Program-made: the position numbers and the translations under genes
Shown here: positions 24,244 to 32,136 of the stretch, in pieces
Numbering within the stretch: position 1 is the stretch's first letter
How the letters are laid out: each line of letters opens with the position of its first letter
Notes under the pieces: model-generated
Databases searched by the model: none
What the model was told of the DNA's origin: nothing
The model's input: only the letters and a program-made list of their open reading frames with translations
NCBI GenBank assembly: GCA_963717205.1
Contig: CAVQVP010000005.1
Coordinates: forward strand, 36,261 to 100,260
Origin: an uncultured Acidobacteriota bacterium
Lineage (GTDB): Bacteria > Acidobacteriota > Terriglobia > Terriglobales > Acidobacteriaceae
Length of the DNA: 64,000 nucleotides
Reading direction: 5' to 3'

Positions 24244-26307
24244 ATGCCCATGGCTCGCACTCGTCCCATCCCGATTTCATGGCTTCCGGCGACCCTTCTC
24301 GGCATCCTTCTGGGCATTCTCCTGAGCGCGTCCGCGCACGGAGCCGAGCAATCTCCGTGGCTCGAAATCCACTCGACCCATTTTAGTGTCATCACCGACG
24401 CCGGCGATAAGAAAGGCCGCGAAGTCGCGTTGCGATTTGAACAGATGCGGGCTTTCTTTGCCACGTTGCTTATGAAGGAACGGCTCAACGAACCGCTCCC
24501 GCTGACCATACTCGCCTTCAAGAGCGACAAAACCTACTACCAGAGCGCGCCCTTGCGGCAGGGCCAGCCCATCAGCCTCCCCGGCTTTTTTGTTTCCGGG
24601 GAGGACCAGAACTTCATTGTTCTGAACCTGTTCGAGGAAGAATCCTGGCGCGCCGTCGCCCACGACTTCGCGCAAATGCTGTTGAACTACAACTACCCTC
24701 CGGTGCAGGGATGGTTCGACGAAGGGCTGGCCGAATATTTCAGCTCGATCCGCGTCGACGATAAGCGGGTGGAAATCGGCAGCGATCCCGGGCTGCAGTC
24801 AGGCTTCAGCGACAACCTGTTGCCGAACCAACAGGACACGCGGAATCCGGGAAAGTCGTTCACAGAGCTGCTCAGCGGACAGGTCTGGCTCACGCTTCCC
24901 GATCTGCTGACGATGAAGCATGACACTTCAACCTATACGGAAGCAACGCGCCATACGCTCTACTATGCCCAGTCGTGGATGATGGTGCATTGCTTAATCC
25001 ACGAAAAAAAGCTGCCCGAGACAGGAACCTATTTTGATTTGGTCGAGAACCATCATGTTCCCGTGGACGACGCCATTCAGAAAGCCTACGGCGTGACGCC
25101 AGCTCAATTCGACCAGGCTGTAAAAGATTATTTCCACTCACTCACGCCGCTGTTCACGGCGCTCGACGCCTCTCGGCAGGCCGCTTCCCAGAGAAATGCG
25201 CCGCAGGTCTACGGGTTCCCGCAGCTCGTGGGACCAAACGACAGCGTGATCAATGCCAAGACCATCCCGGAGACGGACGCTCGCGCCATAGCCGCTGAGG
25301 TGAAAGTGAGAATTCCTGATCGCCGCGAAGCAGGGCTGCAGGAATTGCAGGCGCTCGCCGCCGGACCCGGTCCGGCCGCGGCGAAAACATCCGCCAACAA
25401 AGGCAGCAACAAAGACACCGAAACTGGAGAAAAGATGCTGGTTACTGCGACGGGAAATGAGATCGCCCATCGCGCTCTCGGGTGGGACCATCTGCAGCAC
25501 GGAGAGTTTGATGCCGCACTCGAAGAACTGGGTGACGCTGCCGCCCTCAACCAGCGCGATATGTGGATTCGCTACTACCTTTCGGTGTTGAAGTACCGCA
25601 TGGCGCAGGCGAAGAAAACCGATATCCAGGGCCTGCCTAACATGATGCAGGACCTGCGCGCCGTGCTCGAATGGTATCCCGAAATGGCCGATGCCTACGA
25701 CCTGCTGGCGCTTGCGCGCATGGAAGGTGGTGGACCGGTGGCGGCGATGCAGGCAGAGCGTGCGGCCATGCAACTCAGTCCGCGCAACACGCACTATGTT
25801 TATCATTTGGCGGAAATCTATGAGGCGGATAAAAAGTGGGATGCCGCGCGCGCCCTGCTGGAACGGCTCGAAACCAGTGAGAACGCCCAGGTCGCCGCCG
25901 AAGCCCGCGAGCGGCTGGGAAGGCTTTCAACCGAGCAGAAATATGGCATTTCCGAGGCAGCATCGGCCAAGAAGCTGTCGAATCAGAGTTCCCCTTTCGA
26001 TGTGCTGGAGCAGGACGCAGCCAAGCGCTCCGCCGAACAGGCCACTCACTCCACAACAGCAGACAAGCGCCCCGCAAAGTTTGTCCAAGGCCGGCTGGTG
26101 GGCGTGGACTGCTCGCAGGCGCCGACCGCAGTTCTCACCATCGCCACTGGCGGAGTCGTTTTGAAGCTGCGTACCGCAGACTACAATTCGCTTTTGCTCA
26201 TTGGCGCTGACTCGTTCTCGTGCGCCTGGAATAACCGCTCGGTCTCGGTGAACTACAAACCCGGTGGATTGTCGGATGGGGATTTGCTGTCGGTGGAAGT
26301 GCGGTGA
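24244..26307 (+). CDS. Secreted protein: degenerate MA-type/DUF1570-like peptidase fold plus C-terminal TPR repeats
   Basis: Signal-like N-terminus. VAHDFAQMLL...GWFDEGLAEYF resembles the HExxH...EGLAEY core of peptidase-MA-like proteins, but with HDxxQ. TPR-like repeats in the C-terminal half. Confidence 0.75.
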   Translation: MPMARTRPIPISWLPATLLGILLGILLSASAHGAEQSPWLEIHSTHFSVITDAGDKKGREVALRFEQMRAFFATLLMKERLNEPLPLTILAFKSDKTYYQSAPLRQGQPISLPGFFVSGEDQNFIVLNLFEEESWRAVAHDFAQMLLNYNYPPVQGWFDEGLAEYFSSIRVDDKRVEIGSDPGLQSGFSDNLLPNQQDTRNPGKSFTELLSGQVWLTLPDLLTMKHDTSTYTEATRHTLYYAQSWMMVHCLIHEKKLPETGTYFDLVENHHVPVDDAIQKAYGVTPAQFDQAVKDYFHSLTPLFTALDASRQAASQRNAPQVYGFPQLVGPNDSVINAKTIPETDARAIAAEVKVRIPDRREAGLQELQALAAGPGPAAAKTSANKGSNKDTETGEKMLVTATGNEIAHRALGWDHLQHGEFDAALEELGDAAALNQRDMWIRYYLSVLKYRMAQAKKTDIQGLPNMMQDLRAVLEWYPEMADAYDLLALARMEGGGPVAAMQAERAAMQLSPRNTHYVYHLAEIYEADKKWDAARALLERLETSENAQVAAEARERLGRLSTEQKYGISEAASAKKLSNQSSPFDVLEQDAAKRSAEQATHSTTADKRPAKFVQGRLVGVDCSQAPTAVLTIATGGVVLKLRTADYNSLLLIGADSFSCAWNNRSVSVNYKPGGLSDGDLLSVEVR

Positions 26308-26337
26308 AGCGACTTTATTCCCGACACCCTCACTATT

Positions 26338-26387
26338 TTGTCATTCCGGCCGGAGTCGGACCCTGAGCGAAGTCGAAGGAAACCTGC
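26338..26387 (-). repeat. REP-like element family A, copy 3 (inverted orientation, longer variant)
   Basis: TTGTCATTCCGGCCGGAG...GAAGGAAACCTGC is the reverse complement of the family A ends. Confidence 0.7.
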
Positions 26388-26465
26388 CGTTGTCCGGCAG
26401 ATGATCGGAAGAAAGGCGCGGAACGAACCAGCCGACTCTAGCCTCGGAGGGCGGCATACAGTAGC

Positions 26466-26647
26466 CCCGGACATAAGAGTCTGTGTGAGAACTAGCTGTT
26501 AAGATTTCGAGTGAAACTCCGCGGGGATCTCAGCCGCGAAGCGGCGTCAGAATGCAGCCCACGGCGTAAGCCGTGGGTAGTAAGTGGGAAGGGACCAAGC
26601 CCCGGAGGGGCGAAAGACTAGTACTCACACAGACTCGTAAGTCCGGG
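26466..26647. other. Long imperfect inverted repeat (about a 30-bp stem) enclosing ~120 nt of GC-rich small hairpins; possible structured RNA or composite REP
   Basis: Arm 26467-26489, CCGGACATAAGAGTCTGTGTGAG, matches the reverse complement of 26624-26646, CTCACACAGACTCGTAAGTCCGG, with 2 mismatches. Five more pairs lie inside the arms (26491-26495 / 26618-26622). Internal hairpins include CCGC-gaa-GCGG, CCCACGGC-gtaa-GCCGTGGG and GCCCC-gga-GGGGC. Confidence 0.6.
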
Positions 26648-26769
26648 TAAGCCAAGAAAGCAGGAGCCGAGTCCCGGAGGGATGGCACCAGATAGGAACC
26701 CCTGAGCGGCACTCGGACCCTCTAACGAACCTCAATTAAGGTGTCACTCATGAAGTTTGCGGTGCTACA

Positions 26770-27054
26770 GTGGTTGCGATTCCCCCCGGTGTAAAGGACG
26801 GAAACGGCAAGGGCACGACGTCCCGCTCCCAGTCTATGAACACAAAGCAGCAAATTATCGGCCGGGTTCGCCAAATTGATGACCTAAGGGCTCAGGTCTT
26901 GCAGCACTGGTCGATGGTTCAGCAGTCCGTGAAAAAAGGTGACATTGACGCCGCCATCCCACTACTTAATGCGTACTTCGCCTTGCAAGTTAAGCTTGAC
27001 GGGGTCGAATCCGGCCTTAGGAGCATGCTGAAAGGGCAATTCTCGGATAAATAA
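26770..27054 (+). CDS. Small helical protein, first gene of the TIR operon (function unknown)
   Basis: ORF of 94 aa from GTG 26770, or 72 aa from ATG 26836. Predicted helical (IIGRVRQIDDLRAQVLQHWSMVQQSVKKG...). Its stop TAA at 27052-27054 is followed 1 nt later by the GTG of the TIR gene. Confidence 0.5.
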   Translation: MVAIPPGVKDGNGKGTTSRSQSMNTKQQIIGRVRQIDDLRAQVLQHWSMVQQSVKKGDIDAAIPLLNAYFALQVKLDGVESGLRSMLKGQFSDK

Positions 27055-27055
27055 C

Positions 27056-27877
27056 GTGAGCGCCCTTCCACAACGAGCGGACACGGCTAGTCTCCTGCGA
27101 TGGGTAGCAACCCACCCGAACAAACCCTTTGACCCGACGATGGTTGTATCCCTGAGCACAGGCCACACCTCCGATTGGGAGTGGCAAGCCGTCCTAGCGC
27201 AAATGGAGGATCTGAACCGGCAGGCCTACATCATGAGGCTGAGGCAAGACCCCACAGGCGCAACATACTGGGCCATCTCTCAAAAAGGAGAGAATTACCT
27301 GCGGGCATTGGAGCGCTTTCAATCCGAAGGGCCGGAACCCCGCGACGTGACTGGGGATAAGGCCGCCGCCCCTTCGGATGAGTGGGACGTTTTCATTTCC
27401 CATGCGAGCGAGGACAAGAACGCGATCGCGAGGCCACTCGCCGAAGCCTTACGTGCCAAGGGGCTGCGCGTTTGGTACGACGAGTTTTCGCTCTCCGTCG
27501 GGGACAGCTTACGTAAGAAGATTGACCAGGGACTCGCGAATTCTCGCTTTGGCATTGTCATCTTGAGCCGTCACTTTTTTGAAAAACATTGGCCAGAACA
27601 GGAACTGAACGGACTAGCGACCCGCGAGGTGGGGGGACAGAAAGTCATCCTGCCTGTCTGGCACGGGGTCGGCTTCGACGAAGTGCGGAAGTATTCACCA
27701 ACACTAGCGGACAGAATCGCCGTGAGTACGGACAGGGGCTTGCCGCACATAGTGGAAGAACTTCTGAGGGCGATGGAGAAATCCCCAATCACCAACCGCC
27801 CTCGGAGGGCGTGTCCTCTAATAAGGGCGACTCGACGGCAAGCCTACCGGGGTCGGGGGTTGCGATTCCAAGCCTAA
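27056..27877 (+). CDS. wHTH-like N-terminal domain fused to a TIR domain
   Basis: TIR_2-type motifs: WDVFISHASEDK, GLRVWYDEFSLSVGDSL, FGIVILSRHFFEKHWPEQEL (conserved Glu), VILPVWHGV. The N-terminal ~100 aa look winged-helix-like (YIMRLRQDPTGATYWAISQKGENYLRAL). The last ~30 aa (ITNRPRRACPLIRATRRQAYRGRGLRFQA) look like out-of-frame sequence. Confidence 0.85.
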   Translation: MSALPQRADTASLLRWVATHPNKPFDPTMVVSLSTGHTSDWEWQAVLAQMEDLNRQAYIMRLRQDPTGATYWAISQKGENYLRALERFQSEGPEPRDVTGDKAAAPSDEWDVFISHASEDKNAIARPLAEALRAKGLRVWYDEFSLSVGDSLRKKIDQGLANSRFGIVILSRHFFEKHWPEQELNGLATREVGGQKVILPVWHGVGFDEVRKYSPTLADRIAVSTDRGLPHIVEELLRAMEKSPITNRPRRACPLIRATRRQAYRGRGLRFQA

Positions 27878-28356
27878 CGGACCTCGACAACGTTGTGCTT
27901 CGGTTGATATGCGAACAGGCCATTCAAAAAGAGTCTGGGATGGTTAGTCCCGAAGATATCTACATTTCCACTGACGCGCTCAAGATTGAGAGAGAAGATG
28001 TGTTGGATAGCATCGAAGTGCTTGATGGTCGAGGGTACGTCAAGATTAGCCACGTGCTCGGCGGGCGACCGCGTGGGATAAGCCACCTGCGATTAACAAC
28101 GATGGGCTTCGTGTCTTATGCCGAGGCCCACCTCGTTAACTTCGCCGATCTGCGTCGCGCCGTTGCGACCGCTATTGTGAACAAGCAGGATCAGGATAGC
28201 AAAGCGATCGCGTCGGCAGTAGGGGCTAAGAAGTATGTTGTTGATCAGATTTTGAACGAGTTCGAGAATTTAGGATGGCTTCAGCTCTCGAAATCCTTGA
28301 ACGACACAGTGTACGTATTAAAGACCAGCCCGGAACTGAAGCGCGCATTTCGTTAG
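27811..28356 (+). CDS. Protein with two winged-helix-like repeats (third gene of the TIR operon, or the C-terminal part of a split TIR fusion)
   Basis: The frame is open from 27589. A plausible start is GTG 27811, right after GGAGGG. Motifs: EVLDGRGYVKISHVLGG...HLRLTTMGF and VVDQILNEFENLGWLQLSKSLNDTVYVLKTSPELK. Overlaps the TIR ORF in the -1 frame. Confidence 0.6.
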   Translation: MSSNKGDSTASLPGSGVAIPSLTDLDNVVLRLICEQAIQKESGMVSPEDIYISTDALKIEREDVLDSIEVLDGRGYVKISHVLGGRPRGISHLRLTTMGFVSYAEAHLVNFADLRRAVATAIVNKQDQDSKAIASAVGAKKYVVDQILNEFENLGWLQLSKSLNDTVYVLKTSPELKRAFR

Positions 28357-28387
28357 CCGATTCGGAGACACGCCAAAGAACGACCAC

Positions 28388-28714
28388 TTATTGCGATCTG
28401 GGATTCAATAACCGCTCGACTCTCTCCGGCTCGCAGGCAATGATCTTCAAATAAGCCTGGGTTGGCCGGTCCGGTTGCGCGCGCCCTTGCTCCCAGTCTC
28501 GCAGCGTGCCAAGCGGGATATGGTAGCGGACGGCGAATTCCTCCTGCGTTAGTGCCAGAGCGCGGCGAATGATTTTTGCCTGGGGCGTTCGCTTCATCCG
28601 CCTAAGATCTTCGGAAGTCAACGGTCGCGCGTCGCGGTCAGCACGGGCGGCTGCCTCGACGGCCGCGGGCGCCATAGGCCTAAGCGTTTTGCCGGAAGTA
28701 GTCGTCTTGCTCAT
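28388..28714 (-). CDS. HTH antitoxin partnered with BrnT (BrnA-like/Xre-type)
   Basis: RRALALTQEEFAVRYHIPLGTLRDWEQGRAQPDRPTQAYLKIIACEP is an HTH_3-type module. Overlaps the toxin gene by 35 nt. Confidence 0.8.
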   Translation of the reverse strand: MSKTTTSGKTLRPMAPAAVEAAARADRDARPLTSEDLRRMKRTPQAKIIRRALALTQEEFAVRYHIPLGTLRDWEQGRAQPDRPTQAYLKIIACEPERVERLLNPRSQ

Positions 28715-28963
28715 ATTGCGTTGCCCTTCGGGCTGAAATAATGCGAATGCGTTCCGCGCGCTCGGTATAGGCTACGAATAACAAAGCCTTGCCCTCGGCC
28801 GCCCCGATGATGACAAAACGCTCCTCTCCATGTTCTTCTCTGTCATCCAGCCGCTCAATGGCGAACGGGTCACTGAACACGGTCTTCGCCAAATCGAAGC
28901 TCACACCATGTCTGCTGAAGTTCGCTTTAGCCTTGACCTTGTTCCACTCAAATTCCAGCTTAA
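28680..28963 (-). CDS. brnT: BrnT-family toxin (ribonuclease toxin), non-canonical start
   Basis: Own translation upstream of the track start gives IKLEFEWNKVKAKANFSRHGVSFDLAKTVFSDPFAIERLDDREEHGEERFVIIGAAEGKALLFVAYTERAERIRIISARRAT, a full BrnT fold signature. The conserved N-terminus has no in-frame ATG/GTG/TTG, only ATT (28963) or CTG (28981). Confidence 0.75.
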
Positions 28964-29226
28964 TAGTACTACGGGATACCAGTAGTTAGTCAACCACACT
29001 CCAACAATAAGTACCTTTTCCACAACCTGTCTGTGACATCCGATCTTGTCCACAGCCCATCCCGTGCGTAATCGAGGTCGTGACGGTTGGCACAAGCCAA
29101 TTCGTCGTGCCCCGAACTCCTGGGAGTGACAAAATTGCCAGAGTGGCAGAAACTGCGGGTCGGAGCTGTCCTGCCTCAGTTGGAAATGGAGAAAGCGTTC
29201 GTCCGTTAAGATAACGGAGCGAACGT

Positions 29227-29541
29227 ATGAGGAAGGAACGGAAGCACTTCACCCCTGAAGAAAAAGTAGCCATCCTGAGGCGGCATCTTGTGGACAAAGT
29301 GCCAGTCTCGGAGCTCTGTGAAGAACTGGGTCTGCGCCCAACGGTGTTCTACCGCTGGCAGAAGGAACTGTTCGAGAACGGAGCCGCCGCTTTTCAGTCT
29401 CAAGAGCGTCCCCAGCGACAAGTGGAGGAGAAGCAGAAACGGATCGAGTTCTTGGAGAAGAAGGTACAGACCAAGGATGAGGTCCTGGCTGAGCTGATGG
29501 CGGAGCACATCGCGCTAAAAAAAAGTCTTGGGGAACTCTAA
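29227..29541 (+). CDS. IS3 transposase OrfA (HTH)
   Basis: FTPEEKVAILRRHLVDKVPVSELCEELGLRPTVFYRWQKEL plus a leucine-zipper-like tail. Confidence 0.9.
   Translation: MRKERKHFTPEEKVAILRRHLVDKVPVSELCEELGLRPTVFYRWQKELFENGAAAFQSQERPQRQVEEKQKRIEFLEKKVQTKDEVLAELMAEHIALKKSLGEL
29517..29525 (+). promoter_or_regulatory. Programmed -1 ribosomal frameshift site (A8 followed by G)
   Basis: CTA AAA AAA AGT in the orfA frame. A -1 slip reads AAA AAA AAG TCT TGG... and continues directly into the orfB frame (..SWGTLTGIWVPHDVRDL..). Confidence 0.8.
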
Positions 29542-29552
29542 CCGGTATCTGG

Positions 29553-30497
29553 GTGCCGCATGATGTGCGGGATCTAGTCGTGGATTTCGTCCGGCGCTGG
29601 TCGGAGAAGGCCGAGATCGGCGTCGGACGGTTCATCCCGTGGCTGGGCGTGACCGCGAGCAAGTTCTATGACTGGCGGCAGCGATACGGGTGCGTCAACG
29701 AGCACAACGGTTGGGTTCCCCGTGATTTCTGGTTGGAGCCGTGGGAGAAAGAAGCAATCATCGGGTTCCATCTGAAGACCCCGCTGGAAGGCTATCGGCG
29801 GCTGACGTTCATGATGCTCGACGCTGACGTTGTGGCGGTTAGTCCGGCGAGCGTTTGGCGAGTATTGAAGCAAGCTGGATTATTATCTCGGTGGAAGAGC
29901 AAGCCATCGCGCAAGGGAACTGGTTTCGAGCAGCCGCTGCAGGCGCATCAGCACTGGCATATCGACGTTTCTTACATCAACCTGTGCGGCACGTTCTATT
30001 ACTTGTGCAGCATTCTGGATGGGTTCAGTCGTTTCCTCGTGCATTGGGATCTGCGTGAGTCCATGCGAGAAGCTGATGTCGAGGTGATCCTGCAGCGAGC
30101 CAAGGAGAAGTACCCGGAAGCGAAGCCGCGAATCATCTCGGACAATGGTCCGCAGTTCATTGCTCGCGACTTCAAGGAGTTCATTCGCATCTCGGGCATG
30201 ACGCACGTCCGAACCTCCCCTTACTATCCGCAGTCGAATGGCAAGATTGAGCGCTGGCACAAGTCGCTGAAAAGCGAGTGCATTCGACCGAGGACGCCGC
30301 TGTCACTGGAAGATACAAGGCGTCTGGTCGGGGGCTACGTGGAGCATTACAACAACGTCCGCCTGAACAGTGCCACCGGCTACATCACGCCTAAGGACGT
30401 GCTGGCGGGGCGACAGGCGGAGATCCACGCAGAACGCGACCGCAAGCTGGAAGCTGCCAGACAGCAACGTCAGAGTCGCCGCCAGCGGGCGGCGTGA
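29553..30497 (+). CDS. IS3 transposase OrfB (DDE integrase core)
   Basis: HWHIDVSYI (D), ISDNGPQF (D), YYPQSNGKIERWHKSLKSE (E). In the -1 frame relative to orfA. Confidence 0.9.
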   Translation: MPHDVRDLVVDFVRRWSEKAEIGVGRFIPWLGVTASKFYDWRQRYGCVNEHNGWVPRDFWLEPWEKEAIIGFHLKTPLEGYRRLTFMMLDADVVAVSPASVWRVLKQAGLLSRWKSKPSRKGTGFEQPLQAHQHWHIDVSYINLCGTFYYLCSILDGFSRFLVHWDLRESMREADVEVILQRAKEKYPEAKPRIISDNGPQFIARDFKEFIRISGMTHVRTSPYYPQSNGKIERWHKSLKSECIRPRTPLSLEDTRRLVGGYVEHYNNVRLNSATGYITPKDVLAGRQAEIHAERDRKLEAARQQRQSRRQRAA

Positions 30498-30577
30498 TGG
30501 ATGAACGGATTGCTCCCGGTTGGCCTCCCTGAGCAGTCCCTGCATCTCGGTACACGCGCGGCGGTGGACTAGGTCCT

Positions 30578-31072
30578 CTAGCGTTCGGCAACTCGCGGCT
30601 CACCGATAGGCCCGCCGGCCAGGCGCATTGCGTCTTCGCTTCGAGCCGCGGCTTCGAATGGGGAAGAACCGGAGGAGGGTAACAGCAGCACCGCATCGCG
30701 ATCATTTGGCAAGGAAGCTGTCTCTACCGCTTTTCGCTTTTTCCGGAGGTCATCTATTGCCAAATTGCGGGCGATCGCGAAGAGCCATGGATCAAACCGC
30801 TGCCGCCCGTTGTACTGGCTGCCCCGTTGCAGCACCCGAATCCAGGTCTCCTGCGCAAGGTCCTCAGCATACTCTCGCCTCCCGGTGAGGTATAGCAGGT
30901 AGCGCACCAGTCGATGCTGACAGCGCTCCACCAGGTCTGCAAGAAGCTCCGTATCCCTTTCACGTAAGCCTCGCGCAATCTTTGCCGTTTCGGTTTCGGC
31001 CGTCGTATTCAAGGTCATGGGAAGAGCCAACATATATCCTGTAATACGATCAGACCCCAGCGGATTACTCAA
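30578..31072 (-). pseudogene. ECF-type sigma-70 factor truncated after region 2/linker (region 4 missing)
   Basis: Region 2 is present (AEDLAQETWIRVLQRGSQYNGRQRFDPWLFAIARNLAIDDLRKKRK). The ORF ends ...AMRLAGGPIG-EPRVAER*, with the last codons lying inside the putative IS end. No region 4 HTH. Confidence 0.7.
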
Positions 31073-31400
31073 CTTTTGACCGAAAAGTCACGCTAAGATT
31101 TGCCTCTGACGGATATCGGATCAATGGGCGGCAACGGCCTGACGTGTACAACTCGTTGATTGGTAGACCCCAAACTAGGGCAATAATATACCTGCCTAAC
31201 CAAAGCCAAAGAACGACCCCCCAGATGGCGGGTTTTTATTCTTGGGATTCAACAATCGCGGCAGCAAGAAGGCTACCGTCCATGACGGCTAGCGGTTTCA
31301 GATGGTCCCCTCGAACGTTGCCGGAAGGTCGGGCCAGAGAACTTTAGGCGCTTTTTTTGAGCAGCTTTGCGTAGCCAGGATTTTGTGACATGATTGACTG

Positions 31401-31658
31401 GTGGCGAGATGGGAGCGACGTCGAGCGCAATCGATGAACCGCCACAAGCACGTTCAGTGGAAGGAAGGTGAACCGAAGCTGAAGCTGCGAAGTTTTGCTG
31501 TACCGATAGCTCTGTTCTTCATCTTCATATACGCAGCGCAGTGGGCGTTCCGTTTCCCGAGGGGAAACCTAGTCAACTTGGCGGCGGGGATTATCTTTGC
31601 TGGAACCGCGGCATTCCTCTGGACACTAAAGCCACGGAAAAATCGCCACAAGAGATGA
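31401..31658 (+). CDS. Hypothetical small two-TM protein
   Basis: ORF only. Confidence 0.3.
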   Translation: MARWERRRAQSMNRHKHVQWKEGEPKLKLRSFAVPIALFFIFIYAAQWAFRFPRGNLVNLAAGIIFAGTAAFLWTLKPRKNRHKR

Positions 31659-32136
31659 TTTCCGCATTCTAAATCCGCGTTAAAGTTTCCTTTGCTTTAG
31701 GTAGGTATGTTGTTGCCCAAAATAGGATAGATAGTTGTCGAAACCAGGCGATCACAGCTCACGATTCGGGCCTAGCCGGTCTGGGTTCTGGCGGAATTAC
31801 GGGCCAAACAGATGTTGAGAAACGGCAGGTCGTTGCGGAGCTACAATGATCTCGCCGGGCGAAACGGAAGCGGGCACTGCAGGGATGCAACCATGCCGAG
31901 GGATAACCCGGAGGGCTCATCGAGCCGATGCTCAGCAGCGCGGGAGGCAATCCTCTCGCGCTGTGGATTGCGAGGAAAAAGTCATCGGACGATAGACCCC
32001 CATGCTTTGAAAAATCCCCGCCCCGCAGGGGCGGAATCTACACTAGCGGAGAACGTCGCTTCTCCATTTCACGCTGAGCCAAGACAGAGTGACAAAATAG
32101 CTGAGGGTGTCGCGAGCTCACCCACAACCGTATGAA

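Follow-up and report, generated by a model that had tools for sequence, protein, structure and literature searches.

In a 64,000-nt stretch of DNA from an uncultured Acidobacteriota bacterium (contig CAVQVP010000005.1, positions 36,261 to 100,260; hereafter the window), we identified a two-gene cassette composed of a gene for a 72-aa protein and a gene for a TIR protein. The small protein and the N-terminal ~90 aa of the TIR protein (the "head") form a conserved front end that, as comparisons among related loci indicate, is coupled to exchangeable enzymes of the kinds known from conflict systems. We have high confidence in the gene structure and the modular family, taken together. An initial annotation of the window had described three tightly packed plus-strand genes. 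The three open reading frames (ORFs) are present, but they do not make a three-gene unit, ORF3 being the C-terminal domain of the TIR protein (ORF2) that has been severed by a 4-nt deletion. The limits drawn for the first two ORFs hold. ORF1 is open from 26770 to 27054 and its stop codon (27052-27054) precedes by 1 nt the GTG of ORF2 at 27056. Its product had been given as 72-94 aa; the homologues are all 69-73 aa long and begin at the equivalent of the ATG at 26836, so the real product is the 72-aa form. The 1-nt gap is close enough for translational coupling, and the layout is type II toxin-antitoxin-like, with two co-directional adjacent genes and the small one first. ORF2 (27056-27877, + strand) encodes 273 aa and contains every TIR motif originally quoted for it. 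A scan of positions 26300-28800 for promoters and terminators returned sites no commoner than in shuffled sequence.

The pairing of the small protein and the head is the most constant feature of the family. We fetched 33 loci (~14 distinct contexts) for relatives carrying the head, and in 32 of them, L031 being the exception, a profile of the small protein matched the ORF immediately preceding the head gene, with a gap of 0-12 nt between the two genes wherever the start of the head ORF was read. The small-protein homologues are 39-92% identical. The protein had no match in Pfam, PADLOC, NCBIfam or PHROG, and a profile search of the PDB retrieved coiled-coil matches only, all insignificant. A search with the single sequence gave 3 matches and the scan of species genomes gave 0. 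The 72-aa protein is probably a helical hairpin. The winged-helix-like region first proposed for the N-terminus of ORF2 is borne out by AlphaFold2 (AF2), which models ~90 aa with a predicted local distance difference test (pLDDT) score of 83-95 as three helices (residues 10-19, 41-55 and 76-90) and two strands (59-64 and 70-74) that make a beta-hairpin wing. A profile of the head found only weak matches in the PDB, to the winged helices of eS10 and AspA (E 0.07-0.2). Mean column identity in the head is 67% across very different architectures, its net charge ranges from -5 to +2 and its isoelectric point is mostly 4.8-6.8. Its mostly acidic to neutral character and its occurrence on both kinases and KAP NTPases suggest a protein-protein adaptor or switch rather than a sensor of nucleic acids. 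The same two properties speak, though not decisively, against the nucleic-acid sensing by a winged-helix module that had been suggested for the cassette.

The head family is also rare. An exhaustive search recovered just 28 representative clusters among 1.84 billion proteins, and the head was present in 1 of 185,579 species genomes, a metagenome-assembled genome of Candidatus Acidoferrum. The small protein and head family is thus far represented by metagenomes and this one Acidobacteriota genome. Given that Candidatus Acidoferrum carries the head and that the window holds an Acido-Lenti-1 RNA motif, the family looks acidobacterial. Searches of phage and plasmid collections with the head (tblastn) produced no match, and we rejected a phage or plasmid origin of the head on that account. 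The pair of small protein and head appears to be undescribed in the family libraries (Pfam, PADLOC, NCBIfam and PHROG) and in the literature searched. Nor was such a pair, common to TIR, kinase and KAP NTPase proteins, found in the survey of effector-associated domains (PMC7159879).

The enzymes behind the head vary widely (Table 1). Pfam searches with the head-bearing proteins identified KAP_NTPase (often with Clp_N and the immunoglobulin (Ig)-like DUF7933), Pkinase and TIR_2 domains, while other proteins of the family had membrane segments. PADLOC assigned to the head-bearing proteins profiles of QatA, PifA and PDC-S20, of PD-T4-6, and of PDC-S66 and ThsB. The front end is far more conserved than the enzymes attached to it, which, if the reading of the cassette proposed below is right, would point to one portable control device for chemically unrelated effectors. 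Two of the loci depart from the usual arrangement. In L031 (5001-7979, protein P0153), and also in protein P0145, KAP NTPases carry an internal head behind an extra ~118-aa N-terminal domain that may stand in for the small protein. In the metagenomic locus L017 the head ORF (786-1109) ends after 107 aa, and the protein that continues beyond it in a different frame has a KAP-type P-loop, Clp_N-like repeats and possibly a protease region. A second frameshift of the head family, at the junction of head and enzyme, seems to lie here.

In the window, the enzyme behind the head is a TIR domain. ORF2 matched Pfam TIR_2 over residues 112-220 (6e-23), and a phmmer search of the PDB with the TIR placed it near BtpA/TcpB (4lzp, 1.5e-48), BtTir (7uxr, 5e-47) and AbTir (8g83, 1.9e-43), with matches to this clade ranging to 1.6e-42; 7uwg (AbTir) and 3h16 (PdTIR) were further relatives by sequence. 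The AF2 model of ORF2 (mean pLDDT 79) gave Foldseek target template-modelling (TM) scores of 0.81-0.87, at 50-56% identity, against the best chains of BtTir, BtpA, PdTIR and AbTir. The glutamate of the motif WPEQEL had been assigned to the catalytic position, and the alignment agrees: Glu183 (the E of "QEL") lines up with the Glu of WPAREL in BtpA and is kept in the homologues P0001-P0007. We take this position to be that of the catalytic Glu of TIR NADases. Further, the ratio of nonsynonymous to synonymous substitution rates (dN/dS) of the head and TIR is 0.06 in comparison with the related locus L030, indicating strong purifying selection. The TIR looks functional, as a putative NADase of the AbTir/BtpA type. 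The same TIR domain (70-85% identity) is joined to many other N-terminal domains among >7000 homologues.

The best PADLOC match of ORF2 was the single-gene candidate system PDC-S66 (PDLC05062, 9e-63), which a literature search found merely listed, in two genome surveys. The match covers profile positions 137-278 of 282 only, corresponding to the TIR half. The N-terminal half of the profile is unmatched, and the head, the small gene and the C-terminal domain are foreign to the AbTir/BtpA/PDC-S66 family. The AbTir, BtpA, PdTIR and BtTir proteins have an N-terminal coiled-coil region. PADLOC profiles of ThsB also matched (ThsB1, PDLC00417, 5.7e-36, residues 32-226; PDLC00424, 1.5e-20), as did its retron-TIR profiles.

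The TIR gene of the window is broken at its 3' end. The initial annotation read ORF3 as an independent gene of ~181 aa overlapping the end of ORF2. Its frame is indeed open from 27589 to 28356 and contains two candidate starts, a GTG at 27811 that would give the ~181 aa and an ATG at 27940, but the closest homologues of ORF2 read through into it. These homologues, P0001 (93% identity) and P0002 (83%), are both 404 aa long and are intact fusions, in which the TIR runs straight into sequence 87-92% identical to ORF3. DNA alignment of the window with the intact locus L030 revealed the loss of 4 nt, from GAGAA[GAAT]ATCCCC to GAGAAATCCCC, at 27777-27781. Beyond the deletion ORF2 is thus read out of frame, which accounts for its last 31 residues. 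Four other contigs (L019-L022) have the identical deletion, the carriers being two contigs of the ENA assembly ERZ25039587 and the Logan assemblies of runs ERR12036779 and ERR10755940. Its identity across the ENA contigs and the Logan assemblies identifies the deletion as a real allele of this lineage and rules out a sequencing error behind the frameshift. A programmed frameshift between ORF2 and ORF3 was also ruled out, as the site (GAG-AAA-TCC) has no slippery heptamer and is separated from the intact homologue by a simple indel of 4 nt. A product of ORF3 could nonetheless be translated from the GTG at 27811 or the ATG at 27940.

Outside the window, P0001 and P0002 carry the ORF3 domain as part of a fusion, and its only other occurrence was P0124, which comes from the same lineage. 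We discarded ORF3 as a widespread partner gene because the protein search returned only this lineage's own 138-aa call. The absence of ORF3 from almost all relatives means that the trio is not conserved, so that the synteny expected of the three genes fails for the set and is very strong for the ORF1-ORF2 pair. The dN/dS of ORF3 in comparison with L030 is 0.22-0.30. ORF3 had no match in Pfam, PADLOC or NCBIfam and a single weak one in PHROG (E = 0.003). The two winged-helix repeats proposed for it are doubtful. The AF2 model is poor (pLDDT 42), with a secondary structure of three helices and two strands that occurs twice. Foldseek retrieved winged-helix proteins exclusively, all of them weak matches (E no better than 6e-3, with none at E <= 1e-3), and the two halves compared with each other gave a non-significant E of 0.36.

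The end of the TIR domain also marks a change in ancestry. Homology of the window to the orthologous loci L001, L002 and L006 (blastn) extends from 26636 to 27776 at 87% identity; it breaks off precisely where the TIR domain ends and picks up again at 28402, within BrnA. The TIR protein of those loci ends in a short tail of another sequence, and the gene after it encodes a DUF4145 protein that matches PD-T7-4 weakly. The synonymous divergence (dS) from L030 is 0.47 in the head and TIR and 0.13-0.15 in the C-terminal cassette, a contrast that makes the TIR gene a mosaic. From these comparisons, the 3' end of the TIR gene is a swap site. Further relatives differ again in their tails and downstream genes. 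Other cargoes occupy the position of ORF3 elsewhere: in L002 (7619-8152) the DUF4145 protein, with weak matches to PD-T7-4 and to a PHROG "DNA binding protein"; in L012 (3298-3795 and 4657-5283) a ThsB-like second TIR, with Abi_alpha nearby; and in L008 (3511-4509) a 332-aa protein matching nothing.

Table 1. The TIR cassette and its neighbour in the 64-kb window (window coordinates), and what follows the head in related loci.
Feature or locus	Position	Strand	Remarks
Small-protein gene (ORF1 product, 72 aa)	26836..27054	+	Conserved upstream partner; stop 1 nt 5' of the next GTG
Head domain, TIR protein residues 1-92	27056..27331	+	AF2 model winged-helix-like; mostly acidic to neutral
Flexible linker, residues 93-107	27332..27376	+	AF2 pLDDT <50
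TIR domain, residues 108-242, AbTir/BtpA/PdTIR/BtTir clade	27377..27781	+	Pfam, PDB, Foldseek and PADLOC
Codon of putative catalytic Glu183	27602-27604	+	Alignment with BtpA
4-nt deletion (frameshift), coinciding with the recombination junction at which the orthologous loci cease to match	27777..27781	+	DNA alignment and blastn
Out-of-frame read-through tail of ORF2, 31 residues and stop	27782..27877	+	Nothing comparable in P0001-P0007, which match the -1 frame instead
Severed C-terminal variable domain ("ORF3"), possibly two winged-helix-like repeats	27781..28356	+	Homology to P0001 and P0002
BrnT toxin (Pfam 5.6e-20) and overlapping helix-turn-helix antitoxin BrnA	28388-28904	-	Directly downstream of the cassette
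L001-L006, L019-L022 (orthologous locus)			After the head: AbTir-type TIR
L007; L008-L011; L012-L013			After the head: AbTir-type TIR; neighbours differ
L015 (metagenome)			Contig ends inside the head
L016, L018 (metagenome)			After the head: Ig-like repeat
L017 (metagenome)			Head ORF stops early; KAP-type ORF then in another frame
L032			After the head: different TIR
L024			After the head: Ser/Thr kinase
L023, L027, L033			After the head: KAP NTPase

We searched the surroundings of the cassette for a partner of the TIR by scanning 52 large ORFs across the 64 kb with PADLOC and Pfam (E <= 1e-8; 25 of the 64 matched Pfam families listed). The PADLOC scan contained no ThsA-like protein, and SIR2, SLOG, Macro, cyclase, Argonaute, reverse-transcriptase and STAND domains were found neither in that scan nor among the Pfam matches listed. 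The genes called in the related loci likewise included no ThsA-type or other TIR partner effector. These scans agree with the initial annotation, which had seen no Thoeris, CBASS, Argonaute, reverse-transcriptase or STAND partner. No second copy of the head, the small protein or ORF3 was detected in the window by tblastn. Most of the window is housekeeping (IF-2, NusA, a hydrogenase and peptidases). The BrnTA pair that had been placed beside the cassette does adjoin it (Table 1), but it was rejected as a component of the cassette: the pair is conserved next to the cassette in orthologous loci only, which makes it an independent neighbour.

Several further features of the window lie outside the cassette. 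The Acido-Lenti-1 motif (Rfam RF01687) maps to 26532-26577 on the - strand, with a score of 55.8 bits over a gathering score of 37. It sits within a ~158-nt stretch (26478-26635) that is absent from L001, L002 and L006 and looks like an inserted or mobile copy of an RNA without an assigned function. On the other side of the cassette, a 2.9-kb segment (29166-32086) is missing from L019 and L020, sibling assemblies with 99.7-100% identity elsewhere. This segment carries an IS3-family element (orfA 29227-29541, orfB 29553-30497), an extracytoplasmic function (ECF)-type sigma factor (30578-31072, - strand) and small ORFs, and is more than a simple insertion of the IS element. Two ORFs of the window match Pfam 23S_rRNA_IVP, the better of them with 2.7e-39. 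Strong PADLOC matches in the window to mad3 (6e-97) and mad8 (8.7e-38) are probably housekeeping AAA/MoxR-type paralogues.

The initial annotation assumed that TIR defence proteins are always paired with a specific partner effector. This premise fails because stand-alone TIR defence has precedent: SpbK, encoded by ICEBs1 of Bacillus subtilis, is a stand-alone TIR abortive-infection protein (PMC12847820), and PADLOC includes the single-gene PDC-S66. Reading the cassette as a defence module or a toxin is reasonable, and we lean slightly towards a role in conflict or defence. For the more specific proposal, an NADase that is self-contained, shares the build of SpbK, acts in abortive infection or in a toxin-antitoxin-like manner and has its head gated by the small protein, we would put the chances at about even. 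In SpbK an 18-residue linker joins the N-terminal domain to the TIR, and the N-terminal domains cluster on a phage portal, letting the TIRs assemble into active filaments (PMC12847820). The protein in the window resembles it in the succession of a ~90-aa N-terminal domain, a flexible linker of ~15-18 residues and a TIR, and SpbK needs no partner effector. The two differ in the N-terminal domain, which in SpbK is a 4-helix bundle and here is predicted to combine helices with a beta-hairpin wing. Further, SpbK has neither an obligate upstream small protein nor an extra C-terminal domain. The TIR of the window is closest to AbTir/BtpA, and no SpbK chain was among its PDB matches at E <= 1e-3.

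The layout that copies SpbK and the existence of small proteins that restrain single-gene defence toxins led us to propose a gating mechanism, which we put forward tentatively, as a possibility with the odds against it. At rest, the 72-aa protein would be bound to the head and would prevent the clustering of heads. A trigger, probably derived from a phage, might be read by the variable C-terminal domain or act through loss of the small protein. The 72-aa protein would then be released and the heads would cluster, bringing the TIR domains together so that, in the assembled state, the active site takes shape around Glu183. The assembly would cleave NAD+ to ADP-ribose (ADPR) or cyclic ADP-ribose (cADPR) isomers, with NAD+ depletion as the output, which we assume because no signal receptor is encoded nearby. 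The precedent for restraint is SoFic, a single-gene defence toxin held in check by the small adjacent protein AS1 (PMC12249575). The cassette shares with SoFic/AS1 and with type II toxin-antitoxin systems the tight gene spacing and a small neighbour proposed to restrain a toxic enzyme. It differs from SoFic in that AS1 is encoded downstream, no sequence relationship exists and the docking site proposed here is a separate, highly conserved head common to unrelated enzymes. The initial annotation had instead considered a TIR toxin restrained by winged-helix partners. In our analysis the 72-aa protein, not the winged-helix modules, most likely holds the TIR in check.

Several observations weigh against an SpbK-like defence NADase gated by the small protein. 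The TIR gene of the window is frameshifted, and the local copy may therefore be partly disabled. Most contexts of the head (L023, L027, L031 and L033) are housekeeping genes, not defence islands, and the defence genes that do neighbour head loci (BrnTA, Cas1, VapB and Abi_alpha) are sporadic. In the subfamily of P0145 and P0153 (locus L031), the head is present and no small gene lies upstream. A head with a winged-helix fold may bind DNA or RNA. Finally, AbTir-type TIRs also make cADPR isomers, so signalling through a receptor encoded elsewhere is possible.

An alternative is a plain type II toxin-antitoxin-like addiction or stress module, in which the 72-aa protein would be a labile antitoxin, the head-TIR protein an NAD+-depleting toxin and the head a DNA-binding autoregulator of the operon, with no dedicated antiviral role. 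The order and spacing of the genes fit such a module, as the small gene comes first and the toxin gene follows 1 nt on. The cassette appears as a two-gene insertion standing alone among housekeeping genes, BrnTA is its neighbour in the window and the weak similarities of the head are to winged-helix proteins such as AspA, which binds DNA. We nevertheless judge this alternative unlikely. The head is mostly acidic to neutral, and the same front end is found on KAP NTPases of 700-1250 aa with Clp_N and Ig-like domains, which would be atypical toxins. The hypervariable C-terminal and downstream cassettes, moreover, resemble specificity swapping in immune genes. In classical toxin-antitoxin systems it is the antitoxin, not the toxin, that carries the DNA-binding domain.

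Improbable, in our view, is a Thoeris-like signalling TIR that would sense infection, make a cADPR isomer and activate an effector from elsewhere in the genome. The TIR does match the ThsB profile PDLC00417, a sensor-plus-TIR logic is plausible and a second, ThsB-like TIR gene comes next in L012. TIRs of the AbTir clade are known producers of cADPR isomers. Yet no ThsA-type effector is adjacent, and no ThsA, SIR2-SLOG, Macro or caspase-like partner was found among the matches listed for the scanned window ORFs or among the genes called in related loci. The sister cassettes, in addition, have kinases or KAP NTPases in the place of the TIR, and these are not makers of such signals.

The presence of the same N-terminal domain on NTPases and on effector enzymes such as TIR also recalls the effector-associated domains described by Kaur, Burroughs, Iyer and Aravind (2020), in which pairs of the same domain reside on adjacent genes (PMC7159879). 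By analogy, contacts between heads would bring the TIR effector to a KAP NTPase sensor that also bears a head and whose gene lies elsewhere in the same genome. We give this adaptor model little credence, since every locus examined has a single head gene, the 64-kb window contains no second head and the paired genes of the cited systems are adjacent (PMC7159879). The partner invariably present here is the small protein: each locus has one head, and its companion is the unlike 72-aa protein. The paper does not treat KAP NTPases, the only words in it that begin with "KAP" being two author names among its references (PMC7159879). A report that appeared to link a KAP NTPase with TIR (PMC6382973) was dismissed as irrelevant, the TIR there being a terminal inverted repeat. 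Very improbable is a polymorphic inter-bacterial toxin, whose N-terminal trafficking domain would be constant and served by a chaperone, while the C-terminal toxin and the immunity gene downstream would vary: the constant N-terminus, variable C-terminus, variable downstream genes and the RHS-repeat genes two to three genes upstream in orthologous loci would fit, but neither a signal peptide nor a domain associated with secretion was seen in the sequences or the Pfam results, the TIR stops short of the extreme C-terminus, exported toxins are not typically kinases or KAP NTPases and the head is a small, soluble winged-helix domain.

Returning to the gated NADase, its TIR domain belongs to a well-studied clade that PADLOC already flags as a candidate. 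If the proposal is true, the front end, made up of the small protein and the ~90-aa head, would be of more value than one more TIR NADase. The family is rare and resides in uncultured soil bacteria, and the copy in the window is frameshifted. The sharply placed swap site where the TIR ends illustrates the way in which C-terminal parts of such genes are exchanged between strains. In a bolder reading, which we regard as doubtful, the 72-aa protein and the head would be an unrecognised two-part switch that arms almost any effector (TIR, kinase, KAP NTPase or membrane protein) and defines a new modular immune family. The small protein could then be the actual infection sensor, a decoy or a labile guard. 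If the gated-NADase proposal is right, the front end would provide a handle on how stand-alone TIR proteins of the AbTir/BtpA clade are silenced and switched on, and on the control of KAP NTPases, which are poorly understood.

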